A DNA stretch of 64,000 nucleotides. It comes from a virus. A program made the translations under genes and the position numbers. A model generated the notes under the pieces. It was not told where the DNA came from and did no database searches. It saw only the letters and a program-made list of their open reading frames with translations. Below, piece by piece: positions 22,828 through 55,958 of the stretch (positions within the stretch are counted from its first letter, which is position 1; every line of letters starts with the position of its first letter). Location of the stretch: IMG/VR virus record IMGVR_UViG_3300023179_000021, positions 81,641-145,640 of that record; one strand, 5' to 3'.

Positions 22828-23442
22828 ATGCGTGAACTATTTGATGAAAAATATTTTGAAGATGGTGTTCGTAATCGTGTAAGTGCTTATGAAAATTATC
22901 GATGGATGCCCGAAAGAACAATTCGTGAGGCCTCTTCAATCATTAATAATATATCATTTGAAAATGTATTAGATTATGGATGTGCCAAAGGTTTTATGGT
23001 TTATGCATTAAGGCTTTTAGGTAAACAAGCTCATGGTGTTGACATTTCTGATTATGCTATAAAAAATTGCCATCAAGCTGTGAAAAAATACGTTAGTGTA
23101 GTTGATGACATTGAACAAATTACTGGTGGTTGGGATTTAATTATTGCAAAAGATGTGCTTGAACACACCACGAAAGAAAATGTTCCATTGATTTTAGAAT
23201 CTTTTCGAACCAGAACAAAACAACTTTTTGTTGTTGTACCACTTGGTGATGGTAAAAGATTTCGTATTCGTGAGTATGAAATGGATGTAACTCATATCAT
23301 TCGTGAACCGGAAGAATGGTGGCTTACAACAATTGTAAATGCGGGCTTTAAAATTAAATTTTTTGATTATCAATTTTATCATGTTAAGGCCAATTGGACA
23401 AACACACATTTACATGGTAATGCATTTATCGTAGCTGAATAA
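22828..23442 (+). CDS. class I SAM-dependent methyltransferase
   Basis: VLDYGCAKG, GVDIS, KDVLEH. Confidence 0.85.
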   Translation: MRELFDEKYFEDGVRNRVSAYENYRWMPERTIREASSIINNISFENVLDYGCAKGFMVYALRLLGKQAHGVDISDYAIKNCHQAVKKYVSVVDDIEQITGGWDLIIAKDVLEHTTKENVPLILESFRTRTKQLFVVVPLGDGKRFRIREYEMDVTHIIREPEEWWLTTIVNAGFKIKFFDYQFYHVKANWTNTHLHGNAFIVAE

Positions 23443-23995: not shown

Positions 23996-24577
23996 ATGAT
24001 CCATTTTTATGAAAGAATACATGGTTTTTTTGATTATGAAAAACTTTATGATTTCATCGTCAAAAATGTGCCCGACAATCAAAAAGAAAAAATGGTTGAG
24101 GTTGGTGTATGGAAAGGGAAGTCTGTTTCATATATTGCCGTAGAAATTATTAAATCACAGAAAAATATGACAATAGATGCTGTAGATTCTTGGGAAACAG
24201 CTGAAGGTTGGACAAATGAGCAATATTTAATAGATATGGTAAAAAATGAAGATGTTTATGAACAGTTCGTTAATAATATAGAGCCAGTGAAACATATTGT
24301 AATGCCAATAAAAATGAAAAGTGTGGAAGCTTCAAAAACATATGAAGATAACAGTTTATTTTTTGTTTTTATAGATGGCAATCATACTTATGAATCAACC
24401 AAAGAAGATATTTTATCTTGGTTACCAAAAGTAAAAATTGGTGGTTATATTGGTGGCCATGATTTTGATAATGAAGAATGGCCTGGAGTTCGGCAAGCAG
24501 TGGAAGAAACAGTAGAAGTTAAAAATATTGGAATTTATACTGGCTGGACAAATAGTTGGTTATATCATAAAAAATAA
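23996..24577 (+). CDS. Methyltransf_24-like SAM methyltransferase
   Basis: VEVGVWKGKS, FIDGNHTY, GGYIGGHD. Confidence 0.85.
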   Translation: MIHFYERIHGFFDYEKLYDFIVKNVPDNQKEKMVEVGVWKGKSVSYIAVEIIKSQKNMTIDAVDSWETAEGWTNEQYLIDMVKNEDVYEQFVNNIEPVKHIVMPIKMKSVEASKTYEDNSLFFVFIDGNHTYESTKEDILSWLPKVKIGGYIGGHDFDNEEWPGVRQAVEETVEVKNIGIYTGWTNSWLYHKK

Positions 24578-25529: not shown

Positions 25530-28442
25530 ATGAGATTCCTAGAGTTCTTAATTGAACAAAAAGAAAAACATGCAGTTTTAGCTTTTGGTCGTATGAATCC
25601 AATTACGACGGGGCATGAAAAACTAGTTGAAGCTGTTAAATCCATAGCGAAAAAGTATGGTGCAACGCCATATATTGTAGTTTCACATTCGCAAGATTCA
25701 AAGAAAAACCCACTTTCGGCTCAACAAAAACTCCAGTACGCTAAAAAGTTCTTTCTTGGCGTAAACTTTTCAGCTTCAGATAAAGTGTCACCAAATATTT
25801 TTTCTCAAGCTTCAAAACTTTACAAAATGGGATATACTCATCTTCATGTTGTTGGTGGTTCTGATCGTGTCGATGAATATAAAAATATCATGAACAAATA
25901 TAATAATGTTAAAGGTTCTCATGGTTTTTATAATTTTAAAAACATTATGGTTCATTCAGCTGGTGAAAGAGATCCTGATGCGAAGGGCACTGAGGGCATG
26001 TCAGCATCAAAAATGCGTGAAGCTGCTAAAAACAATGATTTTAAAACATTTCGCAAAGGTGTTCCAAGTCATGCTACAGAATCGGATGCAAAAGGATTAT
26101 TTAATGATGTAAGACATGGAATGGGTCTTAAAGAGAGTATTGATTTTGATTTTGAAGAAATGTTTTTAGAGGGTGTCCATGATAAAAGTATTTTCAAGGC
26201 CGTTTTTCTTGCCGGTGGTCCAGGGTCTGGTAAAGATTATGTACTAGACAATACATTAAGTGGCCATGGGTTGACCGAGATTAATTCGGATAAAGCCTTT
26301 GAATATCTCATGGACAAAAAGAATTTAGATATGAAAATGCCCGAAAGTGAGAAAGAAGCTCGTGATGTTGTTCGTGGTAGAGCTAAATCTATGACTGAAC
26401 TACGCGAAAGATTAGCTCTTCTTGGTCGTAATGGTGTAATTATCAATGGCACTGGTGATGACCCAGAAAAAATCGCAAGAATTAAACAACGTCTTGAGCA
26501 AATTGGCTATGAAACAAGAATGATTATGGTAAATACTCGTGATGAAGTTTCGGCATCAAGAAATGTAGAAAGGGGGCAACGTGGTGGTCGTACAGTGCCA
26601 GAAAAGATTCGTAAACAAAAGTGGGATTCTGTGCAGGCTGCCAGGCCAGAACTCGCTAAACTTTTTGGTGATAATTATACTGAATTTGATAACTCGGAAG
26701 ATTTAAGAACAGCCAGACCCGAGATTGTACAACAAAAGAAACAAGAAATGTTGGATCTTTATAAAAGTGTACAAAAATTTGTAACAAAACCACCCAAAAA
26801 TGATGTGTCAAAAGAATGGATTGCAAGCGAATTACAGAAAGCCGATGTACAAAAAATTGATACGAAGAAAGAAGTAGCGCCACATGAAGGATCCAAAGCA
26901 GCAGAAGAGGCACGAAGAATGGGCCTTAAATATTATGGTTTTGGCCGATATGGAAAAGATGGTAAAGTAACTCATCGTGTTATACATGATAAATTGACCG
27001 ATGTAAGTAAATCTGCTCAACAAGAACCTGCTGCAAGAGAAGCTATAAGAACAATTGCAGCGGCTGGTTCAAGTGGTTCAAATATTACTCCAAGGCAAAA
27101 AGAAAAACTTAAAACACTTATGAGTAAATCGAAATTGCCAAAATTAAAAGAAGAAAATGAACCAAGAATACCTAAAAAACCTGGGCAACCAGATAAGTCG
27201 GATAAACATTCTGATTTATATACCGATGAAGAACCAAGAGGTACGATTCATGGGTTGAAATTTGCTACAAAAGAAGATGCTGAAGAAAGTGTAAGAAAAA
27301 TTAAATCAAGTGATCGTTCACATGCACATAAAATACAAGCAGCTGTTGCTATGGAGCAAAGAGCAAGAGTTATGGGTAAAGATTCTGCAGCTGCCGTTTA
27401 TCGAAAGTTTATAAATTCTATGAAAGAATCATTTGAAAATACTGATGAAGAATTCGAAAATTTATTTTCTGAAGATTTGCGTCAATGGTTTAACCCATCT
27501 CATCCAAAAGGTGGTTGGAAAAGAGTTAACAGTAAAGGTGAAGTTATTGGTCCTTGTGCTCGTGAACCTGGTGAGGGTAAACCAAAATGTTTATCTAATG
27601 AAAAAATTGGTAGTTTATCTAAAAAAGAACGTGCTGCGGCTTTTCGTGCAAAAAGAAAGTATGATCCAAATCCAGAACGCCAAGGTAAACCAATTAATGT
27701 ATCAAACTTTGGCAAAGGTAAATTATCAGAATCTTATGATTTGACAGATTCAAGCGCACTTAATATTTTACTCTTAGGTAATCGTATTGATGAAATTGAT
27801 TTAGACGATAACTATATACAGTTTGAAGAAAAAAAATATTTAAAAGATTCTAGCGGAAAAATTCGTGTGTTTATGTTACGAAGAGCCGCAACAAAAGAAG
27901 CACACACTAAAAACGGAACAGTCATACCATATAAAAATGGTTATATTGTCCAACTAAACGAGGAGACTTATCATGGGAATTCTACAATTCCTGAAAGACA
28001 TATTTTGGGTGAACAAATCGAACTCAGAGAAACCACATCCGCTGGACCCACTTACTTTACCGAAACAAGAGCCCGCCTTAGAGAGTACGCCGAGCTTACC
28101 ACAGGTCAAGAATATGCCAGAGGAGAAGGAATCACCAGTGCCGGAACAGAAGCGCCAGCCGCAGGCACAAAAATCACCCTCGCCAAAATCAGGCAACGGC
28201 AGAAGGAAGCCAAAGTCAAAGAATCTATCGACAAGGGCATAGAACCGGGTCTTTCAATGTCGGCTTCTGGTGAAAATGCTGGGCGACCATCTTTAAAAAC
28301 AAAACAAAATAAAAAACCTTTTGAAGAGGCAATTGGTGCTGGTGGTGAAGATGCAAATTCAATTGGTGCTAAAAAAGAAGATGAACTAAAAAAAGTGGGA
28401 ATTAGTTTAACAACATTCAAAGCAAAAAGGCCAATAGGATGA
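25530..28442 (+). CDS. multidomain protein: cytidylyltransferase-like, zeta-toxin-like P-loop kinase and small basic modules; putative head-packaged
   Basis: FGRMNPITTGH, VGGSDR, GMSASKMR; FLAGGPGSGK; N-terminus MRFLEFLIE; late-like ACTAAATA at 25487. Confidence 0.8.
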   Translation: MRFLEFLIEQKEKHAVLAFGRMNPITTGHEKLVEAVKSIAKKYGATPYIVVSHSQDSKKNPLSAQQKLQYAKKFFLGVNFSASDKVSPNIFSQASKLYKMGYTHLHVVGGSDRVDEYKNIMNKYNNVKGSHGFYNFKNIMVHSAGERDPDAKGTEGMSASKMREAAKNNDFKTFRKGVPSHATESDAKGLFNDVRHGMGLKESIDFDFEEMFLEGVHDKSIFKAVFLAGGPGSGKDYVLDNTLSGHGLTEINSDKAFEYLMDKKNLDMKMPESEKEARDVVRGRAKSMTELRERLALLGRNGVIINGTGDDPEKIARIKQRLEQIGYETRMIMVNTRDEVSASRNVERGQRGGRTVPEKIRKQKWDSVQAARPELAKLFGDNYTEFDNSEDLRTARPEIVQQKKQEMLDLYKSVQKFVTKPPKNDVSKEWIASELQKADVQKIDTKKEVAPHEGSKAAEEARRMGLKYYGFGRYGKDGKVTHRVIHDKLTDVSKSAQQEPAAREAIRTIAAAGSSGSNITPRQKEKLKTLMSKSKLPKLKEENEPRIPKKPGQPDKSDKHSDLYTDEEPRGTIHGLKFATKEDAEESVRKIKSSDRSHAHKIQAAVAMEQRARVMGKDSAAAVYRKFINSMKESFENTDEEFENLFSEDLRQWFNPSHPKGGWKRVNSKGEVIGPCAREPGEGKPKCLSNEKIGSLSKKERAAAFRAKRKYDPNPERQGKPINVSNFGKGKLSESYDLTDSSALNILLLGNRIDEIDLDDNYIQFEEKKYLKDSSGKIRVFMLRRAATKEAHTKNGTVIPYKNGYIVQLNEETYHGNSTIPERHILGEQIELRETTSAGPTYFTETRARLREYAELTTGQEYARGEGITSAGTEAPAAGTKITLAKIRQRQKEAKVKESIDKGIEPGLSMSASGENAGRPSLKTKQNKKPFEEAIGAGGEDANSIGAKKEDELKKVGISLTTFKAKRPIG
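27973..28242 (+). CDS. candidate nested out-of-frame gene (89 aa)
   Basis: GAGGAG SD 7 nt upstream; amphipathic MGILQFLKDIFW start; Pro/Lys-rich tail. Confidence 0.45.
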   Translation: MGILQFLKDIFWVNKSNSEKPHPLDPLTLPKQEPALESTPSLPQVKNMPEEKESPVPEQKRQPQAQKSPSPKSGNGRRKPKSKNLSTRA

Positions 28443-29137
28443 AAAACTTTAAAACATTTATAACAGAAGGTCGCCCTTCACAGAGACACCCACTAGAGGG
28501 CCATGATTATCATAAGAAAACTGATGCTCAACTAGAATATATTGCTAAAGACGCACACAAGGCTGCTGAGGCCATGAAAGGTCACAACACACAGGCAGAA
28601 AACAAGTATCGTGACCAGGCCAATGATTCAGCAACCGTAAGATACTGGCGCAAGAAAAATGGTATGCCTGACTGGTATAAGAAAAAATACGGTCACATGA
28701 AAGAAGAAGTAGAACAAATTGATGAAATGGATAAATCACAACCTTCTTCAAGTCGTGGTGCTGAAGGATTACCATTAGGTAAAAAAGCAATCCCAGTTAA
28801 AACTGATAAAGTTAAATCTGATGCGCTAAAAGTATTGCAGAAACAATACAAAAAAGTAAAAGAAGAAATTGAAATCGAAGAAGATTGGCAAAAAGTAAAT
28901 AAGGCCGATAAAACCGATGGTCTCTCACAGAAGGCCGTAGATGCTTATCGCCGTGAGAATCCGGGTTCTAAACTTCAAACAGCTGTAACTGAAAAGAACC
29001 CAACAGGTAAACGAGCAGCACGCCGTAAATCATTTTGTTCTCGGATGGGCGGTATGAAGAAACGATTAACAAACCCGGAAAATGCTCGTGATCCGGATAG
29101 CCCAATCAACAAGGCTCTACGCCGCTGGAATTGCTAA
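28439..29137 (+). CDS. modular basic protein (DUF6321-like C-terminal module), putative internal head protein
   Basis: MKNFKTFITE start; RRKSFCSRM...INKALRRWNC. Confidence 0.65.
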   Translation: MKNFKTFITEGRPSQRHPLEGHDYHKKTDAQLEYIAKDAHKAAEAMKGHNTQAENKYRDQANDSATVRYWRKKNGMPDWYKKKYGHMKEEVEQIDEMDKSQPSSSRGAEGLPLGKKAIPVKTDKVKSDALKVLQKQYKKVKEEIEIEEDWQKVNKADKTDGLSQKAVDAYRRENPGSKLQTAVTEKNPTGKRAARRKSFCSRMGGMKKRLTNPENARDPDSPINKALRRWNC

Positions 29138-31686: not shown

Positions 31687-32838
31687 ATGAAAAAAGTCTC
31701 CGAATTCTTTAAAGAACTTGAGGAAGAAAAAAAAGACAAGTATGATGAAGGCGAATATGACCAAGAAGGTGATATGGCCAAGTCAGACCTCCGTTCAATC
31801 ATAGCCAATGCACAAAAACTGCACGATATGATTGATGATGCCGACAACCTTCCTGAATGGGTACAATCTAAAATTACAGTGGCCGAAGATTACATTTCAA
31901 CCGTTGCAAATTATATGACGGCTGAAATGTCTGAGGCCGCTAAATTGACACCTCAACAAAAGTTTAAAAACAGTATGAAACGTGCCGGTTATGATATGGA
32001 TGCTAGTGCTAAAAGATTGCAAGACCTATTAGCAAAGCAAAAGAAAGAGCGTGAAGAGCGTGAGAAGAAAAATATGGCGGAAGGCGACAGTGGAGCAAAA
32101 TATAAAGTAAAATCTATTGGTAAAGATATTAAGGGTGATTACTATATCAGTCCCAGCTCTGATAAAAAAGTTTATAAGTCAGGAGTAAATAAAGGCGATC
32201 ACGAAAATCCTAAAACAGGAGAGATTAAAAAGATTGTGGCGGAAGACACTGAACTACAAGAAGCAAATGCTGCAGCAATAGCAGCTGCTACCGCTATCGC
32301 AAAGAAAAAATCTGGTAATTATGACAGTGAAGGCATGAGAAAAACACCTTATAAGAATCCCGATGCACCAAACAGAAAAACAAATACTGAAAGAAAAAGA
32401 GAAATGGATGAAAGTTATTTGGAAGAAAAAAATGTTCCAACAAACCCTTCTCTTTGGTCAAGAGCAAAAGCTTTAGCTCGTCAGAAATTTGACGTATACC
32501 CTTCGGCCTACGCAAATGGTTGGGCTTCAAAATGGTACAAATCTAAAGGTGGAAGCTGGAAATCAGTGAGTGAATCTAAAGAAGATTTGCCTTTTGAACC
32601 AGATCCACCTAAAAAGAATAAAAAACCAGATCACGGCCCAATGTCGAGAGTTAGGCATTTAGCAAAACAAGCTATGAAAAAACAAACTGAAAAAATGAAA
32701 CCAATGAAAGAAACCATTGAAGAATCACGCAAAGCTGAAATTGTCAAAGAGATCGTTAAAAAAAAGAAAAATGAAATGAACGGTAAATTTGAAGCCGACC
32801 CAGTTTTAACAAGTTCAGTTGTCAAAGAGAATAAATAG
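31687..32838 (+). CDS. modular protein with Glu-delimited modules (DUF5872-like module), putative internal head protein
   Basis: MKKVSEFFKELEE; LPEWVQSKIT; PSAYANGWASKWYKSKGGSWK. Confidence 0.65.
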   Translation: MKKVSEFFKELEEEKKDKYDEGEYDQEGDMAKSDLRSIIANAQKLHDMIDDADNLPEWVQSKITVAEDYISTVANYMTAEMSEAAKLTPQQKFKNSMKRAGYDMDASAKRLQDLLAKQKKEREEREKKNMAEGDSGAKYKVKSIGKDIKGDYYISPSSDKKVYKSGVNKGDHENPKTGEIKKIVAEDTELQEANAAAIAAATAIAKKKSGNYDSEGMRKTPYKNPDAPNRKTNTERKREMDESYLEEKNVPTNPSLWSRAKALARQKFDVYPSAYANGWASKWYKSKGGSWKSVSESKEDLPFEPDPPKKNKKPDHGPMSRVRHLAKQAMKKQTEKMKPMKETIEESRKAEIVKEIVKKKKNEMNGKFEADPVLTSSVVKENK

Positions 32839-46858: not shown

Positions 46859-47233
46859 ATGGGTTTAGATATGTACGCTTGGTCGGTTGATGAAAATGAT
46901 GTAATCTCTGAAACCAAGTTTAATGAAGAGAGCGATAAGGTAGAGATTTTTCGTTGGCGGAAACACCATAACCTTCATGGTTGGATGGAAAAGCTATATT
47001 ATGACAAAAACGGCGAAGGTGAATTTAATTGTGTACCTGTGCGCCTTCGTATCTCCGATTTAGTGGAACTTCAATCTGTAATTCTGGCGCATGGGTTGCC
47101 AAAAACCGAAGGGTTTTTCTTTGGCGATAACCCACCCGATGAAGATTCCGATGAGCAGGATTTATTGTTTATTGCAAAGGCTCTCTCGGAGATTAACCGT
47201 GGCCGTGCGGTTTTTTATGATTCTTGGTGGTGA
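46859..47233 (+). CDS. conserved hypothetical early protein
   Basis: MGLDMYA, WRKHHNLHGWM, GFFFG, FYDSWW. Confidence 0.7.
   Translation: MGLDMYAWSVDENDVISETKFNEESDKVEIFRWRKHHNLHGWMEKLYYDKNGEGEFNCVPVRLRISDLVELQSVILAHGLPKTEGFFFGDNPPDEDSDEQDLLFIAKALSEINRGRAVFYDSWW
47174..47231 (+). repeat. 58-bp direct repeat, copy 1 (3' end of gene 46859-47233)
   Basis: One mismatch to 49396-49453. Confidence 0.9.
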
Positions 47234-47247
47234 AAAACAGTAATTTA

Positions 47248-48249
47248 ATGAAAGCATTTATTACCGGTATAACCGGGCAAGACGGCTCTTATTTAGCGGA
47301 ACTTCTTTTAAATGAGGGCTATGATGTGCATGGCCTAATTAGGCGCACAAGTACATATAATTTTCAAAACATCGAACACATTCAATCAAAATTAAATCTT
47401 CATTACGGAGACTTATCGGACGCACCAAATATACACAACATTATTATGGACATTAAACCCAATGAAGTGTATAACCTTGCCGCACAATCACATGTTTCGG
47501 TTAGTTTTAAATTGCCTGCATATACTGCTGAAATAAATGGCATTGGTGTGCTTTATATACTTGAAGCAATACGAAAACTATCTGAATATCAAACCTGCAA
47601 ATTTTATCAAGCATCAACAAGTGAACTTTTTGGTAAAGTCCAACAAATTCCGCAAACAGAAAATACGCCATTTTACCCACGAAGTCCTTATGCTGTAGCG
47701 AAATTATACGGCTATTGGACTACAGTTAACTATCGTGAAAGTTATAATTTATTTGCATGTAATGGTATTTTGTTCAATCACGAAAGTCCACGAAGAGGTG
47801 TAAATTTTGTTACAAGAAAAATTACACATGGCTTAGTGAGAGCAATTCGCGGTGAAGGCCCCGTTCAATTAGGTAATTTAGATGCAAGAAGAGATTGGGG
47901 CCACGCAAAGGACTTTGTTGAAGCAATGTGGCTTATGCTTCAGCAATCAAAAGCCGATGATTATGTAATTGCAACGGGTGTTCAACGAAGCGTCCGCGAA
48001 TTTTGCGAAGTTGCCGCTAAGGTTTTAGGAAAAGAAATTAACTGGGTTGGTTCTGGGCTATTAGAACAAGGCTTAGATAAAATGTCTGGTAAAGTTCTCA
48101 TTGAAGTTTCAAAAAAGTTTTATAGACCAGCTGAAGTGAATACACTTTTAGGAAATTCAACGAGGGCGAGATCCATTTTACAGTGGGAACCAAAATATAA
48201 TTTTTATGATTTAGTGAAAGAAATGTGTAACGAAGAACTTAAAAATTGA
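47248..48249 (+). CDS. gmd: GDP-mannose 4,6-dehydratase
   Basis: ITGITGQDGSYL, NLAAQSHV, PRSPYAVAK, FNHESPRRG. Confidence 0.96.
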   Translation: MKAFITGITGQDGSYLAELLLNEGYDVHGLIRRTSTYNFQNIEHIQSKLNLHYGDLSDAPNIHNIIMDIKPNEVYNLAAQSHVSVSFKLPAYTAEINGIGVLYILEAIRKLSEYQTCKFYQASTSELFGKVQQIPQTENTPFYPRSPYAVAKLYGYWTTVNYRESYNLFACNGILFNHESPRRGVNFVTRKITHGLVRAIRGEGPVQLGNLDARRDWGHAKDFVEAMWLMLQQSKADDYVIATGVQRSVREFCEVAAKVLGKEINWVGSGLLEQGLDKMSGKVLIEVSKKFYRPAEVNTLLGNSTRARSILQWEPKYNFYDLVKEMCNEELKN

Positions 48250-48255
48250 ATAGAT

Positions 48256-49023
48256 ATGAAAATAGTATTAGCAACTGGTGGTTTTGATCCTCTTCATAGC
48301 GGCCACATTGATTATTTTAATGCAGCAAAAAACTATGGTGATATTTTAGTTGTAGGTATCAATAGTGATGCTTGGTTAACAAGAAAAAAAGGTCGTGCAT
48401 TCATGCCCTGGAATGAAAGATTTTCTATCATTTCAAATCTAAGCATGGTAAACAAAGTTACTGAATTCAATGATGATGCGAATAATAGCACTCATTGTAT
48501 TCAAAAATTATTAAAAGAGTTTCCAAATGATGAAATTATTTTTGTAAATGGCGGAGATCGTGATTATACAAATGTGCCAGAACAGACACAATTCAAAGAT
48601 AATTCTAGAGTTAAATTTGAATTTGGTGTAGGAGGAAATGATAAAAGAAATAGTAGTCGTTGGATTCTTGAAGAATGGAAAGCACCAAAAACAGAACGTG
48701 TTTGGGGGCACTATCGAGTAATTCATGAAACAGGTAAAAAATTTAAAGTAAAAGAATTAATTGTTGAACCGGGTAAAACTCTGAGTATGCAAAAACACGA
48801 AAACCGATCAGAATTTTGGTTTATTGCTGAAGGATATGCTACGGTTTATACAATGAATAACATCGGTACGGAAAAACTAATTGGTGTGTTCGGAGAGCAT
48901 CAGGACATTTGGATACCAAAACAAAGTTGGCATCGTCTAGAAAATGCAACAAAACAAACCTTACGTTTAATTGAACTTCAATATGGAGAGGAATGTTCAG
49001 AACTGGACATTATAAGACAATGA
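48256..49023 (+). CDS. cytidylyltransferase-like domain fused to a mannose-6-P isomerase-type cupin
   Basis: TGGFDPLHSGH, NGGDR; SMQKHENRSEFW, WHRLEN. Confidence 0.8.
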   Translation: MKIVLATGGFDPLHSGHIDYFNAAKNYGDILVVGINSDAWLTRKKGRAFMPWNERFSIISNLSMVNKVTEFNDDANNSTHCIQKLLKEFPNDEIIFVNGGDRDYTNVPEQTQFKDNSRVKFEFGVGGNDKRNSSRWILEEWKAPKTERVWGHYRVIHETGKKFKVKELIVEPGKTLSMQKHENRSEFWFIAEGYATVYTMNNIGTEKLIGVFGEHQDIWIPKQSWHRLENATKQTLRLIELQYGEECSELDIIRQ

Positions 49024-49376
49024 TACAAATACCAATCAGTATTGGGGAATTGATTGACAAACTCACTATTCTTCAGATAAAATTACAACAGATTGATGAT
49101 CCTGAAAAATGGAAGAATGTAAAGAATGAGTGGGATATTCTATTCAGACTTCCTGAATACAAAGACGTTGCATATGAGATTGCACCATATTTCACCAATC
49201 TCTATGTTGTCAATATGGAACTATGGAAGATTGAAGATGATATTCGTGGATGCGAAAAAAATCAAAACTTTGATTTGAGATTTATTCAATTGGCAAGATC
49301 CGTTCTACACTGGAAACCAAAATATAATTTTTATGACTTAGTAAAAGAAATGTGCAATGAAGAGTTTAAAAAGTAG
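49020..49376 (+). CDS. DUF6165-like protein with a gmd-derived C-terminus (chimera)
   Basis: SIGELIDKLTILQIK, LWKIEDDIR; the last 26 aa copy the gmd tail. Confidence 0.7.
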   Translation: MIQIPISIGELIDKLTILQIKLQQIDDPEKWKNVKNEWDILFRLPEYKDVAYEIAPYFTNLYVVNMELWKIEDDIRGCEKNQNFDLRFIQLARSVLHWKPKYNFYDLVKEMCNEEFKK

Positions 49377-49395
49377 GTTTCGGGCGCAGTTTTTC

Positions 49396-49453
49396 GCAAA
49401 GGCTCTCTCGGAGATTAACCGTGGCCGTGCGGTCTTTTATGATTCTTGGTGGT
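49396..49453 (+). repeat. 58-bp direct repeat, copy 2 (non-coding remnant AKALSEINRGRAVFYDSWW*)
   Basis: Matches 47174-47231. Confidence 0.9.
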
Positions 49454-49512
49454 AATTTTAAAAAATCCATTGATTTCATAAATATTATTTTTATTTTCAT
49501 GGAATCAATAAA

Positions 49513-50061
49513 ATGAAAACATACAAAGAATTTGTACAAGAATCTTCATTGTCACGAGTACATTCGCATACACAAGGCCGAAATATAGGTATGATTACGG
49601 CCCATCGTGGAGAAAATACAGCCGAAGAAAATAATCGAAACAATGATTCTCTTAAAAAATCTATAAGAGATGCTGGTTATGGGTTTATTCCTGTCCGAGG
49701 CCGTTATATAGAAAACCATGGCACACCACAAGCTCGTCCTGTTGATGAAAAATCTTTTTTAGTTGTAGGTAAAAAGGGTGATGATAAAGGTGAACTTAAA
49801 AAATTTTTAATTAAACATGGCGAAAAACACGGCCAAGATTCAATTTTACATAAACCCCATGATGAAGAAAATGCTAAATTGCATGGAACTAAAGAGGGTG
49901 GATTTCCAGGTAAGGGGAAAACGCATGATGTTGGAAAATTTCATCCAAACCGTGCTTCTGAATTTCATACGGCCATGAAAGGTTCCAGAACATTTGCATT
50001 TGAATCATTTGAATTTTTAAATTCCGTTGGGTTTTTTTCACGGGAAGAAAAGTTATTTTAA
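49513..50061 (+). CDS. SAM lyase (T3 SAMase/Svi3-3-like) with capsid-targeting N-terminus
   Basis: ITAHR, GRYIE, DEKSF and GQDSIL motifs; MKTYKEFVQE start; CATAAATA at 49477. Confidence 0.7.
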   Translation: MKTYKEFVQESSLSRVHSHTQGRNIGMITAHRGENTAEENNRNNDSLKKSIRDAGYGFIPVRGRYIENHGTPQARPVDEKSFLVVGKKGDDKGELKKFLIKHGEKHGQDSILHKPHDEENAKLHGTKEGGFPGKGKTHDVGKFHPNRASEFHTAMKGSRTFAFESFEFLNSVGFFSREEKLF

Positions 50062-50065
50062 AAGT

Positions 50066-50133
50066 GTCGTAAAAAAGCAACAGTTGCCTACATACAACAC
50101 CGCCTTGACAATTGCCAGAAACCAGACTATAAT
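50066..50133 (+). promoter_or_regulatory. early sigma70 promoter with two boxes
   Basis: GTCG-N8-CAAC 50066; GTTG-N8-CAAC 50083; TTGACA-17-TATAAT. Confidence 0.8.
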
Positions 50134-50163
50134 TGATTCCATGATGATTGATAAGGATACGAA

Positions 50164-50442
50164 ATGAGAGTTAAGAGAATGATTGACGGCCTCGATAACG
50201 GCCAAAAGATTCGGGTGATTGTTGATGGCGTTGGTTTTCACACCACGGTCAAGGGTGCCTTTGATTTGGTTTTCTACCATCACCGTGTGGCTGCTGTTCA
50301 GGCACTCACCAGCCTGGCTCTTCAACGTATACTGGCTATGCAAGGTCATGGTCAAGTAACCACGAGCTTTGCCACCCGGTACGAAGTCCGCAAGGATGAC
50401 GGCAAATTAATTCCTGTTGATGTTCAAGTGGATTTGTACTAA
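50164..50442 (+). CDS. early hypothetical protein
   Basis: SD AAGGA downstream of the promoter. Confidence 0.65.
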   Translation: MRVKRMIDGLDNGQKIRVIVDGVGFHTTVKGAFDLVFYHHRVAAVQALTSLALQRILAMQGHGQVTTSFATRYEVRKDDGKLIPVDVQVDLY

Positions 50443-50443
50443 A

Positions 50444-50638
50444 ATGTATAGAACATTGTATTATGTGGCCTTGAACCACCTAAAAACCTTTTCCGACGGT
50501 GGCTGGCGTGATTATATAGCCACGCCAAGTCTAGGTAGGGCGAGGTACTATGCCAAAAAACTTAAACGAAAGTATAGGCAAATTGATGTTTATGAAAAAG
50601 GTAAGAAACCGTATGTGCTGCCCAGGAGCTGGTTATGA
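50444..50638 (+). CDS. early hypothetical protein
   Basis: MYRTLYYVA, coupled to neighbours. Confidence 0.5.
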   Translation: MYRTLYYVALNHLKTFSDGGWRDYIATPSLGRARYYAKKLKRKYRQIDVYEKGKKPYVLPRSWL

Positions 50639-50898
50639 ATAGCCAGGAAATTAGCGATGCCGTGTATGCCTACGCAAAAGGTCGTAGCGACTTTACAGCA
50701 CCCTATGGTGTTTTACAAGGTGAGCATGTCAATCGAAAAGGCACCAAGTTTAAGAGTGTGACTTTTGGCCGTGCTCGTACACTTGATGCTACAGTGGAAA
50801 TCTATAATAGGAATTTTATGATTCTTCGGTGTAGTGGTGTTGCTAACCGAGTATATGAAAATTATGATGATTTAATGGTCGCATTGCGGGAGCTATAA
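50635..50898 (+). CDS. early hypothetical protein
   Basis: ATGA overlap; SD CAGGAG. Confidence 0.6.
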   Translation: MNSQEISDAVYAYAKGRSDFTAPYGVLQGEHVNRKGTKFKSVTFGRARTLDATVEIYNRNFMILRCSGVANRVYENYDDLMVALREL

Positions 50899-51119
50899 TG
50901 ATGAACGAACGAATTCGAGAACTTGCTGAACAATGTTGGGATCAGCGATTAGATGGTCGGCATTTCGATCAGGAAATGTTCGCCGAGTTGATTTTGAAGG
51001 ATGTATTCGACCGCTTCGGTGATGAAATTTTGAGCTTACACTATCTTAAACAGGAATGTTGCCAAGATTCGGTGCATTTGCTGAAATCAAAAATACAAGA
51101 ACATTTTGGAGTTGAATAA
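50898..51119 (+). CDS. MNERIREL-family small phage protein
   Basis: MNERIREL...FAELI...EHFGVE. Confidence 0.65.
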   Translation: MMNERIRELAEQCWDQRLDGRHFDQEMFAELILKDVFDRFGDEILSLHYLKQECCQDSVHLLKSKIQEHFGVE

Positions 51120-51304
51120 TGAACGAACGAATCAGAGAATTGTATTTAAAATCTTTAAGTGACAATCAAGAATTCTGTTATCAGAAATTCGCCGAGTTGA
51201 TCGTTCTAGAAGTGTTAAATGTACAGGAAAACCTTATGGCTAATGGCCATAATGCCTGGCACCTACACAAACCTACTAAAAAACATTTTGGAATTGAAGA
51301 GTAA
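51119..51304 (+). CDS. MNERIREL-family paralogue
   Basis: MNERIREL...KFAELI...KHFGIEE. Confidence 0.65.
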   Translation: MNERIRELYLKSLSDNQEFCYQKFAELIVLEVLNVQENLMANGHNAWHLHKPTKKHFGIEE

Positions 51305-51317
51305 GAGCTATTGCCTT

Positions 51318-51367
51318 GTTGCAAAAAAACAACACGCCTTGACAATTTCCCACTTTCGGCATACCAT
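51318..51367 (+). promoter_or_regulatory. early sigma70 promoter with one box
   Basis: GTTG-N8-CAAC 51318; TTGACA-17-TACCAT. Confidence 0.78.
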
Positions 51368-51373
51368 TACTCC

Positions 51374-51571
51374 ATGATGAATAAGGAAACAATGATGACT
51401 GACAAAACGATTTTCGCCATTGAAGGTGTCGGTGAGTATGGGCTCGACGTTGACCATAGCCCTGGCAACGGTGGCTATTATGTTAAACTTTATGATGGTT
51501 CTTATGACGCTTCAGGCTTCTATACCGAAAAAGAAGCCCGTGAAGAGCTCGAGTACCTTACCAACCACTGA
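51374..51571 (+). CDS. early hypothetical protein
   Basis: Starts at the predicted TSS ATG or at the SD-led ATG 51392. Confidence 0.6.
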   Translation: MMNKETMMTDKTIFAIEGVGEYGLDVDHSPGNGGYYVKLYDGSYDASGFYTEKEAREELEYLTNH

Positions 51572-51580
51572 GATATAGCC

Positions 51581-51925
51581 ATGATTGATAACCACCTTAC
51601 CGATTACCTCACCGCCATACGCACCAGCTATGCCGACCACCATATCAAAATGAATAATGGTGCTGACGATACAACTAAGGCCATCCGTGCTGAAATGTAT
51701 GATGATTTTTGTGCCAACCTACGCTTTGAAGCGGGTAACAAGTATATAAAGATTATCACCAAGAATTCCGTACATAGCTTCATTGTGAACACCGATAAAG
51801 ACCGAGAGTTTAAGAGGGGTGATATACTGAAAGCCAATAGTTGGACAGCACCGGCCCGTAACTTTGCTCGAGGTAATATAGTGAAAAAGCAATATGGAAA
51901 TTTATCTTGGACCGGAGTAGCATAG
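51581..51925 (+). CDS. conserved phage early protein
   Basis: GNKYIKII, SVHSFIV, GDILKANSWTAPARNFARGNI. Confidence 0.7.
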   Translation: MIDNHLTDYLTAIRTSYADHHIKMNNGADDTTKAIRAEMYDDFCANLRFEAGNKYIKIITKNSVHSFIVNTDKDREFKRGDILKANSWTAPARNFARGNIVKKQYGNLSWTGVA

Positions 51926-51937
51926 TGGTGGTAATTG

Positions 51938-51970
51938 GGATAATGATTACTATTTGAGAATGATTCTTAA
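51938..51970. promoter_or_regulatory. two tandem Fur-box-like 7-1-7 elements
   Basis: GGATAAT-G-ATTACTA and TGAGAAT-G-ATTCTTA. Confidence 0.55.
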
Positions 51971-51987
51971 TTGGAAAAAACTATACC

Positions 51988-52082
51988 GTTGCGAAAAAAC
52001 AACACCTCACTGTTGCCGCAATACAACACCGAAAGTTGCGAAAAAACAACGTCTTGACAATTGCCCAAAATCAGACTATAAT
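51988..52082 (+). promoter_or_regulatory. early sigma70 promoter with three boxes
   Basis: GTTG-N8-CAAC at 51988, 52012 and 52035; TTGACA-17-TATAAT. Confidence 0.82.
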
Positions 52083-52089
52083 TGGTTCC

Positions 52090-52338
52090 ATGATGAATGA
52101 GGAAACGAAAATGATTGATTATGTTGCTGCCGAAGATGGTTGTATTGAATTTTATGCCGGTCTTGGTAACTTGGTTGTAAAGTCGAACGATATAGAAGTT
52201 TTAACGGCTGCTGTGAAGGCTGCTGGAGGCTTTGCTAAGAACCTGATGGCCTCGAGCTCTTGCGATTTTGCGGACGAGTATGGCTTCCCCACCCAAGGTG
52301 CCTTTGATGCTTTACTGATGGCTGCTCTGGAAGCCTAA
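52090..52338 (+). CDS. early hypothetical protein
   Basis: ATG at the predicted TSS, or SD-led ATG 52111. Confidence 0.6.
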   Translation: MMNEETKMIDYVAAEDGCIEFYAGLGNLVVKSNDIEVLTAAVKAAGGFAKNLMASSSCDFADEYGFPTQGAFDALLMAALEA

Positions 52339-52370
52339 GATTGCCTCTGGACTCTGAAAACCTGTATATA

Positions 52371-52562
52371 ATGACGGTGCTACCTATGATAAATGATACC
52401 GATTTAAACCTGCTGTGTGCTGAGATAGCCGCTGAGACCTTGAGCTGTTATACTGAGGACCTTTGTGATGATATGGAGGTGGAGCTTCTGGAGCTAAACA
52501 ACCCCCGCTACCATGGCCCAGATTATGATGAAGGCTGTGAGTTTGACCCGCTGTTGGGATAA
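52371..52562 (+). CDS. small acidic hypothetical protein
   Basis: Start uncertain. Confidence 0.4.
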   Translation: MTVLPMINDTDLNLLCAEIAAETLSCYTEDLCDDMEVELLELNNPRYHGPDYDEGCEFDPLLG

Positions 52563-52600
52563 AACAACAGGCTTGACAATTGCTCAGAAAAGCGTATAAT
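52553..52600 (+). promoter_or_regulatory. early sigma70 promoter with one box
   Basis: GTTG-N8-CAAC 52553; TTGACA-16-TATAAT. Confidence 0.75.
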
Positions 52601-52607
52601 TGGAAAC

Positions 52608-52790
52608 ATGATGAATAAGGAATTGATGATGTTTGTAGTAAGTACCCCCTCCGAGGTGGGCCACGAGGTCCTCTCCACTTTTACCTCCCTCGATGATGCT
52701 GTGGCTTTCGTCGATGGTAACCCCGCTCTGACCGTCACCGAGTGCAAATTGGTGGTTGGTCCGTTCGGTATGAAAATGATCCCCGTTTGA
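52608..52790 (+). CDS. early hypothetical protein
   Basis: Directly after the promoter. Confidence 0.6.
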   Translation: MMNKELMMFVVSTPSEVGHEVLSTFTSLDDAVAFVDGNPALTVTECKLVVGPFGMKMIPV

Positions 52791-52803
52791 AAGGAAATTG
52801 AAA

Positions 52804-53085
52804 ATGGCTGCTGTTGGTTCTCTCAATAATCTTAAAGACACCCTTGCTGCAAAGCGCACGGCTCTCAAAGCTCTGAAGGCTGAGGTCGCTGAATTGGCTG
52901 GTAAGGTCAAAACCTATACCGCTGACAATAAGGCCATCAAGGCTGCGGCTCGAGCTGATCGAAAGGCTGCTAAAATTGCGGCTCTGGAAGCCAAACTGAT
53001 GGCTCTGAAAATTGGCCCGGTCGGTGTGGTTGCCAAGAGGGCGGCTCGTAAGGCTGGTCCCGTAACCGTTGTGGAGGTTGTATAA
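52804..53085 (+). CDS. Lys/Ala-rich basic coiled-coil protein
   Basis: KAAARADRKAAKIAALEAKL; SD AAGGA. Confidence 0.65.
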   Translation: MAAVGSLNNLKDTLAAKRTALKALKAEVAELAGKVKTYTADNKAIKAAARADRKAAKIAALEAKLMALKIGPVGVVAKRAARKAGPVTVVEVV

Positions 53086-53291
53086 TGTGGAATCTTGAAG
53101 GCCTCACCGTGCGAGGCCTTTATATGGGCGAGTACCCGGTAAGTGGCCGGGTGGAGCTTTCAAGGGTCAAGTATGGCGGCGAAGTTCAGCACACCGTGGT
53201 TTTGGACAAGGCAATAAAGTTTCCGTGGCGAACAGAGCCCGCTGAGAGGCTGCTGCTGGAGCATAAGTATATCGAGCAGGTGCAAGGATGA
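53085..53291 (+). CDS. conserved small phage protein
   Basis: MWNLEG...SRVKYGG..HTVVLD. Confidence 0.65.
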   Translation: MWNLEGLTVRGLYMGEYPVSGRVELSRVKYGGEVQHTVVLDKAIKFPWRTEPAERLLLEHKYIEQVQG

Positions 53292-53473
53292 AACAAAAAC
53301 CAGTCCAAACCTATGTGAACGAAGACGGTATATTGGTCAAAGTTTATAAGGGTTTCCCAGCCCGAGCTGAAGAGAAAATGAACTACAATTTTAACCGCTA
53401 TAGTGTCGCCAACGTTGGACGGAAAGCTATGACGCTAACTAAGGCAGGCTTCGCAGGCCGTCACGTTATGTAG
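53288..53473 (+). CDS. hypothetical protein
   Basis: ATGA overlap. Confidence 0.55.
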   Translation: MKQKPVQTYVNEDGILVKVYKGFPARAEEKMNYNFNRYSVANVGRKAMTLTKAGFAGRHVM

Positions 53474-53670
53474 CGGGGCTACATATATTGGTATGGAAAC
53501 TAAATCTATATGGGGTTTAAGGATCCCTTACTGGGTGTCAAGGGATCCACTAAGGGATCCACTCACGCTCTCTATTTCTCTCTTTCAAAAAATCCGCCGG
53601 AGTCCAAAAGCCTCTGGAGTACGAGCTCCAAAAAAACCTCCGGATCCAAAATACACCAGGAGTACGAGCT
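53468..53670. repeat. non-coding repeat cluster (GGATCC x4, AAGGGATCCACT x2 tandem, GGAGTACGAGCT x2, spaced A-tracts)
   Basis: Directly visible; ATGTAGC-ggg-GCTACAT hairpin at the left edge. Confidence 0.75.
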
Positions 53671-53802
53671 ATGTGGGCTCTTAAAATCATAGCCATTGGT
53701 TTCTTTTCTTCTATTGGATGGTATGGTGCCGAGCGATTGGTCATTGAGCCCTACCTAAAGCCCAAAGAACATATCGAGGAGGTTAAAAATGGGAATGCTT
53801 GA
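53671..53802 (+). CDS. small membrane protein (43 aa)
   Basis: MWALKIIAIGFFSSIGWYGAERLVIEP. Confidence 0.45.
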   Translation: MWALKIIAIGFFSSIGWYGAERLVIEPYLKPKEHIEEVKNGNA

Positions 53803-54115
53803 CTATGTTTTATGGAATGGGTTTCGGTATCAATCCCGGACTACACCAGCACAATTTCTGTATGAATATAAAATACAAGCGGATATAGAAACTGGTTTGG
53901 TTTCTCTATGGGTAGAGGAACACGATAGCAACCCTCTACTGGACTATGATAAAATAAACCCTCGGTGGGTACTATGTGAGGACTTTACTGGTGAGGTTCG
54001 GTTTCACAGGAGCCTCGATAAATCCCATACCAAATGGGAGGAATATTCGGCCTATTTCGTTAAGGGTAGGTTGAGAGAGATAAACAGGTTGGATGACAAT
54101 GAAAATATGGGTTGA
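53789..54115 (+). CDS. conserved hypothetical protein
   Basis: MGMLDYV, YQSR, FTGEVRF, YSAYFVKG; SD GGAGG. Confidence 0.65.
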   Translation: MGMLDYVLWNGFRYQSRTTPAQFLYEYKIQADIETGLVSLWVEEHDSNPLLDYDKINPRWVLCEDFTGEVRFHRSLDKSHTKWEEYSAYFVKGRLREINRLDDNENMG

Positions 54116-54278
54116 CCCGCCCAGTGGATGGCGTTATGGATTTCCTAAGATATACAATACTGAAAGTGGAATGACTATCATGGAGTGGTTGGTATCTGAA
54201 GGTTACCCACAAAAGGAAATAGATTACTTGGGTCGTTTATTTTATATGAGACAATGGAAGGTTACAGAAAATGAATAA
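54093..54278 (+). CDS. conserved hypothetical protein
   Basis: DPPSGWRYGFPK...WLVSEGYP. Confidence 0.65.
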   Translation: MTMKIWVDPPSGWRYGFPKIYNTESGMTIMEWLVSEGYPQKEIDYLGRLFYMRQWKVTENE

Positions 54279-54612
54279 ATCAATTAAAGTGGTCATCAAT
54301 GCCGATTATGGCGGATTTTCTTTATCGGGAGAGGCCTATGCGATCATTGCAAAGGTCAACGGATGGACAAGGTGTACAAACGATTATGGTTACGATTACT
54401 TAATGGATGAAAAAGGAAATCGATTGGACTATTGGAAAATTCCACGAGACGATCCGGGGTTGATAGAGGCTGTTGAAACATTGGGTTCCGAAGACGCCGG
54501 TGGAGAACATTCAACACTAAAAATCGTGGAGGTTCCCGAGGACATTAATTGGTATATTGCAGAATATGATGGAAATGAATGGGTAGCCGAAAGGCATCGA
54601 ACATGGAAATAA
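54271..54612 (+). CDS. conserved hypothetical protein
   Basis: KVVINADYGGFSLS, RDDPGLIEAVE, EYDGNEWVAE. Confidence 0.7.
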   Translation: MNKSIKVVINADYGGFSLSGEAYAIIAKVNGWTRCTNDYGYDYLMDEKGNRLDYWKIPRDDPGLIEAVETLGSEDAGGEHSTLKIVEVPEDINWYIAEYDGNEWVAERHRTWK

Positions 54613-54803
54613 ACATACATAAACTGGCAAAGAAGCACCTCTATACGATTGAAGGTTCACCGTTCTGGGAGGCAGCAGGTTATAAAGAGTTTGCCGAAGA
54701 GATTATTGAGGAGTGTGCCAAGGTCGTGGATCATATTTCCATGAGCGGCGGTGAAACCATTGGAAATTTAATACGAAAAAAGTTTACACTCAATGAAAAC
54801 TAA
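54603..54803 (+). CDS. hypothetical protein (FAE.II.EC family)
   Basis: EFAEEIIEECA. Confidence 0.55.
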   Translation: MEINIHKLAKKHLYTIEGSPFWEAAGYKEFAEEIIEECAKVVDHISMSGGETIGNLIRKKFTLNEN

Positions 54804-55431
54804 ATTAGCACTTTTCAATCATCACCCCGAATGTAGCATTGATTGTTGCAATGGTATGGTTGAGGCGCTTTCTTCGGATTATCGAGTGGATTTATTTACG
54901 CAGCATCAATTCAATAAGGTCATACTCAAGGACTATGCGGCTGTCATGTTTCCTGGAGGGATTGGAGACTCTCATACACATTATAATTTTTTCACCCGCC
55001 GGCAAGGTAATATGTTGGCTGAGTATGTGGAGGCTGGTGGCAAGTATATCGGTATTTGTATGGGTGCTTACTGGGCAGGTCCTTGGTACTTTGATTTATT
55101 GGAAGGCATTGATGTTGTTCAATACATTAAAAGGCCTGGAGCCGAAATTAAAAGGTCCTACGCCACGGTAGCCAATGTGGTGTGGGGTGATGAATCGGAG
55201 AATGTTTTTTTCTATGATGGTTGCACATTCATTGGAAAGAATGAAGCCTTTGAAACGGTGGCCTGGTATGCCAATGGCGATCCCATGGCTATCGTACAAG
55301 GAAATATTGGACTGATTGGTTGTCATCCGGAGAGTCAGCAATACTGGTATGATCGTAAATACTTAAAAAAGCATTGGCATGAAAAGAAGCATCATGTACT
55401 GTTAAAAAACTTTGTGAATAATTTACTATGA
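54793..55431 (+). CDS. BPL_N-like class I glutamine amidotransferase-fold protein
   Basis: FPGG, YIGICMGAY, GCHPE triad. Confidence 0.8.
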   Translation: MKTKLALFNHHPECSIDCCNGMVEALSSDYRVDLFTQHQFNKVILKDYAAVMFPGGIGDSHTHYNFFTRRQGNMLAEYVEAGGKYIGICMGAYWAGPWYFDLLEGIDVVQYIKRPGAEIKRSYATVANVVWGDESENVFFYDGCTFIGKNEAFETVAWYANGDPMAIVQGNIGLIGCHPESQQYWYDRKYLKKHWHEKKHHVLLKNFVNNLL

Positions 55432-55576
55432 ATACACTTTGGCTTCTTTTAAATATATTTTTTGCGGCGTGGATGTATAAATCGGCCGATGATGAGCTCT
55501 ACGAAAAAAGTAAATTCGTTTGGTTTTTGTTTTTGTTTACTTCAGCATGGAATGGAGCTTCAATAGCAAAGGCCTT

Positions 55577-55643
55577 GTTGTAAAAATGCAACAGTTGCGT
55601 AAAAACAACAGGTCTTGACAAATGGAGCGGGTTGGTCTACAAT
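55577..55643 (+). promoter_or_regulatory. early sigma70 promoter with two boxes
   Basis: GTTG-N8-CAAC at 55577 and 55594; TTGACA-17-TACAAT. Confidence 0.8.
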
Positions 55644-55649
55644 AGAAGC

Positions 55650-55958
55650 ATGAAAAGACGTTCTGATAGAAACTATGTGCTCTACTCGGTGACCTGCTCG
55701 GACACCGGTGACTTTTACATTGGTTTGACCGTGGCTACTGGCCGTGCGTTCCTTCGTTCCGTCAAGGTTCGTTGGCAAAAGCATGTATCGAGAGCCTATC
55801 GTGAAAACAAAGCTTGGGCATTTTGTGATTTCCTTCGGAATAACGCCGAGGCGGATTTTCGCTACGAGGTCATTGAAGTAATCCGTGGCCGTAAAAATGC
55901 CTATCAGCGAGAGCGTGAATTGATTGCTGAATTTGAACCAACATTAAATACATTTTGA
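55650..55958 (+). CDS. GIY-YIG domain protein, probably leaderless
   Basis: VLY...FYIGLT...RWQKH...ERELI...LN; ATG 7 nt after the -10. Confidence 0.75.
   Translation: MKRRSDRNYVLYSVTCSDTGDFYIGLTVATGRAFLRSVKVRWQKHVSRAYRENKAWAFCDFLRNNAEADFRYEVIEVIRGRKNAYQRERELIAEFEPTLNTF

Follow-up and report, generated by a model that had tools for sequence, protein, structure and literature searches.

A predicted T3-type S-adenosylmethionine lyase that is probably packaged in and injected from the head of an uncultured T4-like lake phage

Here, we describe a gene for an S-adenosylmethionine (SAM) lyase family protein with a putative T4-type capsid-targeting leader, located in a 64-kb stretch of viral DNA (hereafter the window: the whole stretch analysed, at the end of a 145,640-bp IMG/VR virus record; 35.7% G+C; CheckV completeness 83%). 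The gene occupies positions 49513-50061 of the + strand (stop codon included), begins at the first start codon after a stop, and encodes a 182-residue precursor. Specifically, the precursor comprises a ten-codon leader, MKTYKEFVQE (49513-49542), predicted to be cut by a prohead protease after Glu10 (VQE/S, the slash marking the cut), followed by a predicted mature enzyme of residues 11-182 (49543-50058; 172 residues, 19.3 kDa, isoelectric point (pI) 9.5). We consider it probable that this product is a T3-type SAM lyase that is made late as a leader-bearing precursor, packaged into the head, and injected with the DNA. Packaging, cleavage after Glu10, ejection, activity, and target defences are what we infer for the window protein; the presence of a leader-bearing homologue in purified virions of a related phage, S-CREM2, has been shown by others.

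Membership of the SAM lyase family, which a sequence-only reading of the window had claimed from the order of four motifs, is well supported by a Pfam match, a fold match, and conserved catalytic Glu, Gln, and Tyr residues. The open reading frame (ORF) matches PF23780 (S-AdoMet_lyase) over residues 27-146 with an E-value of 5.6e-11 and a score of 42.9 bits, above the curated cut-off of 28 bits, and the match was confirmed on the genome; 157 homologues were found and, among those listed, all except one short fragment carry PF23780. Plain sequence search of the protein against PDB sequences with phmmer gave chance-level matches only, and a profile of the close family found no match among PDB sequences; the link to T3 rests on Pfam, hhalign, and fold. 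In particular, hhalign of the family profile against T3 gp0.3 (NC_003298) aligns residues 26-127 with T3 residues 13-113 with an E-value of 3.2e-4, and pairs, collinearly, ITAHR (residues 28-32) with VSAFR, GRYIE (63-67) with GCYRE, DEKS (78-81) with EEKT, and GQDSIL (107-112) with EQDCVL. The T3 motifs that the sequence-only reading had listed (SAFR, GCYRE, EEKT, and EQDCVL) are correct as read in gene 0.3, and their order is the one that it had given.

An AlphaFold2 monomer model made from 56 homologues (mean predicted local distance difference test score (pLDDT) 82.5) indicates that the fold is a PII-like/GlnB-like alpha-beta sandwich, nearest to those of solved SAM lyases. Comparison with T3 SAM lyase and Svi3-3, which the sequence-only reading had called for, places both at the top of the PDB matches found by Foldseek (T3 SAM lyase, 8bb1 (8bb1_E) and 7ock; Svi3-3, 6zm9 and 6znb). 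VIA-align superimposes model residues 17-169 on T3 SAM lyase with Z 9.9 (7ock_L; root-mean-square deviation 3.6 Å, 129 residues) and Z 9.7 (8bb1_E), and gives Z 6.8 and 6.5 for Svi3-3, as compared to 5.6 for the best unrelated chain.

The hhalign alignment also pairs the candidate active-site residues, E79 with T3 E68, Q108 with T3 Q94, and Y65 with T3 Y57. In the 56-sequence alignment, in which homologues span 43-92% identity, E79 and Q108 are invariant (56/56) and Y65 is at least 90% conserved. Glu79 (DEKS; codon 49747-49749), the predicted catalytic glutamate, therefore corresponds to Svi3-3 E69 as well as to T3 E68, and the substitutions T3 E68Q and Svi3-3 E69Q/A abolish function (PMC7877911). 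Tyr65 (GRYIE; codon 49705-49707) would, by position only, be the equivalent of Svi3-3 Tyr58, where the substitution Y58F lowers activity and destabilises the trimer (PMC7877911). Gln108 (GQDSIL; codon 49834-49836) is the B-loop glutamine; the corresponding Svi3-3 Gln104 or SAM-AMP lyase Gln108, together with the catalytic Glu, are the only structurally conserved active-site residues (PMC12255297). By analogy with these enzymes, the window lyase would convert SAM to 5'-methylthioadenosine (MTA) and homoserine lactone, and the closeness of the model to T3 SAM lyase over SAM-AMP lyase is suggestive as to substrate. The RefSeq T3 record (NC_003298; L097:901-1359) names the gene 0.3 product "SAM-dependent methyltransferase", as does PHROG 2226; the protein is a SAM lyase, and this misannotation may mislead automatic annotation of the family.

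The leader of the window lyase is, as the sequence-only reading had noticed, nearly that of the T4 internal proteins (IPs). T4 ipII and ipIII (NC_000866) start MKTYQEFIAE, and ipI starts MKTFKEF; MKTYKEFVQE is identical to the IPII/IPIII leader at 7 of 10 positions, including positions 4, 7, and 10. The first 10 residues of IPIII are enough for foreign proteins to be packaged in T4 heads, and gp21 removes them (PMC10229621, PMC5694885), and suppressor analysis in the T4 leader assigns targeting mainly to residues 4 and 7 and processing to residues 8 and 10 (PMC9026906). At these functional positions the window lyase has Tyr4, Phe7, Val8, and Glu10, of which Tyr4, Phe7, and Glu10 are identical to the IPII/IPIII residues. 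The predicted cleavage site is maintained across the family: among 113 members, P3 is hydrophobic in 113 (Leu or Ile in 95), P1 is Glu, P1' is Ala or Ser in 100, and the commonest leader length is 10. The phage's own major capsid protein (MCP) carries LHE/A at the position where T4 gp23 is cut.

The leader pattern is portable. We built a strict pattern from the T4 functional positions, M-x(1,2)-[FY]-x2-F-x2-E at the start codon, and scanned each ATG, GTG, and TTG opening at least 50 codons in all six frames. In 85 kb of T4, used as a positive control, 1234 candidate starts yielded ipII, ipIII, and one spurious internal GTG. In the genome studied here, 4 of 2466 candidate starts match, and all four are true gene starts of unrelated proteins, all on the + strand: the SAM lyase; a 970-residue protein (25530-28442; leader MRFLEFLIE) with cytidylyltransferase (NMNAT-like), zeta-toxin/AAA_33 kinase-like, and further PHROG modules; a 232-residue basic protein (28439-29137; pI 9.7; leader MKNFKTFITE) with a C-terminal DUF6321; and a 165-residue ORF (15834-16331; leader MYFKEFLNE) with a DUF6267 N-terminal piece followed by an intein fragment. 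The N-terminal part of the 970-residue protein is 34.5% identical to S-CREM2 gp154, a leader-bearing, virion-detected cytidylyltransferase, and the protein is, as judged from its sequence, a candidate injected multi-enzyme protein. A 383-residue basic protein (31687-32838, + strand; pI 9.2) has a looser leader, MKKVSEFFKE, which matches a "mid" pattern and is weaker than the four strict matches. A loose pattern was dropped as too permissive, having dozens of matches at internal or antisense starts in S-CREM2. Overall, these matches support the view that the lyase leader is a portable T4-type capsid-targeting sequence common to unrelated cargo.

Leader-like N-termini were also observed elsewhere. 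In Paraglaciecola Antarctic GD virus 1 (L001:2995-4579), gp44, gp46, and gp48 all have strict leaders (MQTFDQFLTE, MKTFSTFMAE, and MKTFSEFLGE); gp48 is the SAM-lyase homologue, gp45 and gp47 lie in between, and the arrangement resembles the T4 internal-protein locus. In the present record, outside the window and between the portal and protease genes, a 255-residue basic protein with the leader-like start MKSLTEFRQE (record positions 63547-64314; L011:2548-3312) lies after a gp67-like ORF preceded by TATAAATA. The 255-residue protein matches nothing in Pfam or PHROG and may be a core or internal protein.

That the leader acts as a packaging signal, rather than only as the enzyme's first helix, is best supported by the virion proteome of S-CREM2. 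Mass spectrometry (MS) of CsCl-purified S-CREM2 virions detected 52 of 219 ORFs, among them ORF6, a "SAM hydrolase" identified by 19 unique peptides, and the authors proposed in 2023 that the SAM hydrolase enters with the DNA to counter restriction; the paper is silent on a targeting leader and on protease processing (PMC10665884). Applied to S-CREM2, the strict pattern returns gp6 (the SAM-lyase homologue), gp14 (a kinase), gp136, and gp154 (the cytidylyltransferase), together with one antisense artefact. All four genes are in the virion list of 52 of 219 (hypergeometric P ~0.003), and the near-pattern proteins gp13 and gp15 are likewise in the list. The leader thus predicts virion association in S-CREM2, whose prohead protease is 53% identical to that of the window phage. 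The S-CREM2 supplement contains no peptide-level data on the mature N-terminus of the SAM-lyase homologue, and a second cyanophage virion-proteome paper does not report a SAM lyase in virions (PMC12801897). S-CREM2 gp12 (L012:7704-10313), a virion protein annotated as Cas9-like, has an internal leader-like sequence (...LRFASFMAE/AAV) about 17 residues in; either its start is mis-set or its leader is internal.

The lyase family comprises at least 390 IMG/VR loci. Homologues in isolated phages, identified by tblastn, are present in Synechococcus phages S-CREM2, S-H34, and S-N03, Prochlorococcus phage P-TIM68, Microcystis phage Mel-JY01, Paraglaciecola GD virus 1, Alishewanella phages, Campylobacter CP220-like phages, and Lak megaphages. 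N-termini were read for all of these except S-N03; each shows a hydrophobic-x-E site and then SLxR, most with a T4-like leader. The Lak and CP220 homologues have a long N-terminal part that is not clearly T4-like. Fused, longer forms also occur, as BFVD matches of 538-1477 residues and in S-CREM2 and S-H34.

The late-type promoter claimed by the sequence-only reading is supported at the level of the motif. The motif CATAAATA (49477-49484, + strand) lies 28 nucleotides (nt) 5' of the lyase ATG, and was analysed together with two motif classes, the T4 type TATAAATA and a relaxed form NATAAATA. The heptamer ATAAATA occurs 22 times on the sense strand of the genome and 4 times on the other strand. 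Ten of the 22 sense copies are within 40 nt 5' of gene starts (~9-fold enrichment, these windows making up 5% of the genome), the reverse complement occurs 0 times in the same windows, and the genes preceded by the heptamer include late structural ones, among them the gp25, gp13, gp67-like, gp22, and gp3 homologues. All 7 of 7 TATAAATA copies precede genes. The association extends to the orthologues: among 70 orthologous IMG/VR loci, NATAAATA is present 6-31 nt upstream of the gene in at least 8 distinct upstream contexts; the motif is also upstream of the homologues in S-CREM2 (TATAAATA) and S-H34 (AATAAATA); and the closest relative (L017) keeps the heptamer in the alignable promoter region. 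As judged from these motifs, late expression of the lyase gene is likely. The gene looks like a late unit of its own, because a terminator-like hairpin (49418-49433) lies upstream and a perfect sigma-70 promoter, TTGACA-17-TATAAT (50105-50133, + strand; 12/12 matches), opens the next unit of small ORFs; downstream of this promoter, G+C climbs from 0.34-0.37 to 0.40-0.51. The T3 enzyme is expressed early, as the sequence-only reading had stated, with promoters A1-A3 preceding gene 0.3. An RNA element upstream of the window lyase was considered and rejected: the 143-nt upstream region shows no folding excess, folding no better than shuffles (z -0.84), and its G+C-rich part is the duplicated 3' end of the upstream gene.

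The phage encodes the machinery that late expression and head packaging of this type would use. The record is that of a T4-like phage: tblastn with T4 proteins as queries identified homologues across the structural and packaging genes, namely the portal (gp20), prohead protease (gp21; E-value 2e-26), scaffold (gp22; 7e-19), and MCP (gp23) of the head; the terminase (gp17); the sheath (gp18) and tube (gp19) of the tail; gp13, gp14, and gp15 of the neck; gp5, gp6, gp25, gp26, and gp53 of the baseplate; and gp2, gp3, gp4, and UvsW. The prohead protease matches Pfam Peptidase_S77 (PF03420) with 120 bits, and the genome also encodes homologues of gp55 (late sigma factor) and gp45 (clamp). The head proteins are nearest to those of T4-like cyanophages (57% identity for the MCP and 53% for the protease, versus S-CREM2). 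The phage itself is an uncultured lake phage and not a cyanophage; no cyanophage marker genes were seen in the 64-kb window. It has no close sequenced isolate, as megablast of the lyase region against 50,697 phage records gave no match.

Together, these observations suggest the following pathway. Late transcription would start from the NATAAATA promoter, probably through recognition by the gp55-type sigma factor that the phage encodes. Through its leader, the precursor would bind the gp22 scaffolding core in the prohead, where the gp21-type protease would remove the leader by cutting after Glu10 (VQE/SSLSRV). The mature enzyme, basic and of 19 kDa, would remain with the DNA inside the head and be delivered along with it into the next host, where trimers would form again. 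The trimers could cleave SAM to MTA and homoserine lactone and lower its pool ahead of all phage gene expression, which would weaken SAM-dependent defences such as type I and type III restriction and bacteriophage exclusion (BREX). The pI of the predicted mature lyase, 9.5 versus a genome median of 6.35, is as expected for a DNA-associated internal protein.

A lyase made late in active form could compete for SAM with the phage's own class I methyltransferases. The window contains two class I methyltransferase genes (22828-23442 and 23996-24577), in agreement with the sequence-only reading that the same genome encodes SAM-consuming enzymes. We speculate that activation only after prohead cleavage would resolve this competition with late methyltransferases and with the upstream glycan-decoration block. 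This more elaborate proposal, in which the precursor is a zymogen that the prohead protease switches on inside the head by removing the leader and in which aquatic T4-like phages inject a leader-tagged set of enzymes (SAM lyase, NMNAT-like cytidylyltransferase/kinase polyprotein, and DUF6267 ligase-like protein), is tentative, and we regard it as unlikely.

Several points weigh against packaging and injection of a late-made lyase. The protein and the phage are known from sequence alone, as an uncultured IMG/VR contig. The C-variant of the promoter motif is less specific than the T4-type form, since CATAAATA precedes a gene start in only 2 of 5 sense-strand copies, so that late timing is likely rather than certain, and a weak sigma-70-like site (9/12 matches) is present farther upstream of the lyase gene. 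Position 8 of the leader is Val, a conservative departure from the Ile/Leu of T4. The known SAM lyases have their active sites at trimer interfaces (PMC7877911, PMC12255297), and an enzyme whose known relatives are active as trimers would have to reassemble after ejection. In addition, the few dozen to few hundred molecules that a head might deliver may or may not outrun pre-loaded restriction complexes.

Three alternatives to delivery of a SAM-depleting enzyme were weighed. First, the protein could be packaged and injected, but with cleavage of SAM-AMP, or binding and inhibition of host methionine adenosyltransferase (MAT), an activity that T3 SAMase also has, as its main job. SAM-AMP is the second messenger of type III CRISPR systems, and W64, F84, T110, and Y122 are the SAM-AMP-specific residues. 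The family includes SAM-AMP-specific members, one phage enzyme being inactive on SAM (PMC12255297), and the structures that best match the window lyase, 7ock and 8bb1, show T3 SAMase bound to MAT. A SAM-AMP lyase assignment is not favoured by the order of the structural matches, and we consider this alternative quite improbable.

Second, the protein could be a SAM lyase of the usual cytoplasmic kind, at work in the cell that makes it, with its N-terminal 16 residues serving only as a structural helix of the subfamily. In the model, residues 4-20 form one helix that crosses the proposed cut site, and the x-E-S-L-S-R motif (h-x-E/SLSR) is conserved even in the Lak megaphage homologues, which are not T4-like, such that its conservation could be partly structural; furthermore, virion MS can detect contaminants, and the S-CREM2 study itself warns of possible carry-over of abundant late proteins into virion preparations (PMC10665884). 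The conservation in Lak megaphages and the carry-over warning count against packaging of the window lyase as well as in favour of a cytoplasmic role. On the other side, the same leader is present on unrelated proteins in this genome, in GD virus 1 (on three neighbouring genes), and in S-CREM2, where every strict-pattern gene encodes a virion protein; the first ten residues have a pLDDT of only ~53 and lie outside the T3-aligned region (17-169); and a cytoplasmic enzyme against restriction should, like that of T3, be made early rather than lie behind a late-type motif. We judge a purely cytoplasmic role, accordingly, to have little probability. Third, the protein could be an internal head protein without catalytic activity, in which the SAM-lyase fold serves only, for instance, DNA binding or a decoy function. 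It is basic, and many of the varied T4 internal proteins are not enzymes (PMC3012670), but the catalytic Glu, B-loop Gln, and Tyr are invariant or nearly so in more than 50 homologues, as purifying selection on an active site gives. We consider this third alternative very improbable.

The surroundings of the lyase gene show signs of a recent rearrangement. Direct repeats of 65 nt (47167-47231 and 49389-49453; 95% identical) bound a 2,222-bp sugar-nucleotide cassette (47232-49453) that comprises a GDP-mannose 4,6-dehydratase, a cytidylyltransferase-cupin fusion, and a DUF6165-like ORF. The second copy (direct repeat D2, + strand) is a non-coding duplicate of the 3' end of ORF 46859-47233, contains the terminator-like hairpin, and forms the right edge of the inserted cassette, separating it from the lyase gene. 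Within the cassette, the 3' end of the dehydratase gene is repeated over 81 nt (48165-48245 and 49292-49372), so that the ORF at 48993-49376 ends with a second version of the dehydratase C-terminus. L017, the closest relative, has no cassette and an unbroken junction. The cassette thus looks like a recent insertion by recombination with junction duplication. On the other side of the lyase gene, the block at 50100-55800 that follows the sigma-70 promoter has many small ORFs and a G+C content of 0.40-0.51, versus a genome mean of 0.357; it is probably an early region and may differ in origin.

SAM lyases, the T4 targeting leader, and, since 2023, a homologue in virions with the idea of its injection (PMC10665884) are already known. 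The present work adds a lyase in compact, unfused form from a lake phage that is not a cyanophage, a family count of at least 390 loci, and a proteome test of the leader rule. A literature search found no publication connecting a SAM lyase with a capsid-targeting leader and protease site, and found "capsid targeting" and "cyanophage" together only in a T4 review. If the proposed pathway is correct, the packaged enzyme is a defence-blunting activity delivered at time zero. More generally, the rule M-x(1,2)-[FY]-x2-F-x2-E predicts which non-structural proteins of T4-like aquatic phages are packaged in virions, and it agrees with an independent virion proteome, such that injected proteins of uncultured phages become readable from sequence; the family of at least 390 IMG/VR contigs enables the idea to be tested in cultured relatives.

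The likeness to the T4 internal proteins IPI, IPII, and IPIII lies in the 10-residue N-terminal leader (MKTYQEFIAE in T4 and MKTYKEFVQE here; Mullaney and Black 1996, as cited in PMC9026906 and PMC10229621). The roles of its positions in T4, with aromatic residue 4 and Phe7 in targeting and aliphatic residue 8 and Glu10 in gp21 processing (PMC9026906), are matched by the window leader. The T4 proteins are small basic cargo packed with the DNA and injected, and IPI* is an anti-restriction protein (PMC3012670); they differ from the window lyase in that they are not enzymes, IPI* being a stoichiometric GmrSD inhibitor, and have no similarity to it beyond the leader. S-CREM2 ORF6 is 33.7% identical to the window lyase over 166 residues (E-value 8e-14), with a leader MKDFDSFLEE ... 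LEE/SSLSRL and TATAAATA upstream; it differs in its length (414 residues), in its leader, which is longer and has two sites, and in its C-terminus, a long basic tail that the window lyase lacks, and its phage has Synechococcus as host, whereas the window phage is an uncultured lake phage. Svi3-3 (6ZM9, 6ZNB) and the C. botulinum/phage SAM-AMP lyases (9GAD; AcrIIIB4 candidate) have the PII-like fold and the conserved Glu and Gln in common with the window lyase; Svi3-3 is structurally more distant from it than T3 (Z 6.5-6.8), and the SAM-AMP lyase has a Foldseek E-value of 0.16. We know of no Svi3-3 or SAM-AMP lyase that is packaged in virions.

The T3 SAM lyase, the classic example of a phage enzyme that defeats SAM-dependent restriction and BREX, must be transcribed before it can act. 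T3 gp0.3 (7OCK, 8BB1) belongs to the same Pfam family, PF23780, is the best structural match, and has the four collinear motifs with Glu, Gln, and Tyr kept. It is made first, from early promoters used by host RNA polymerase, and has no leader. The window lyase, in contrast, has only about 17-25% sequence identity to T3 gp0.3 and differs from it in having a 16-residue N-terminal extension, of which 10 residues are the T4-type leader, a late-type motif upstream, and a pI of 9.5 versus 8.2.

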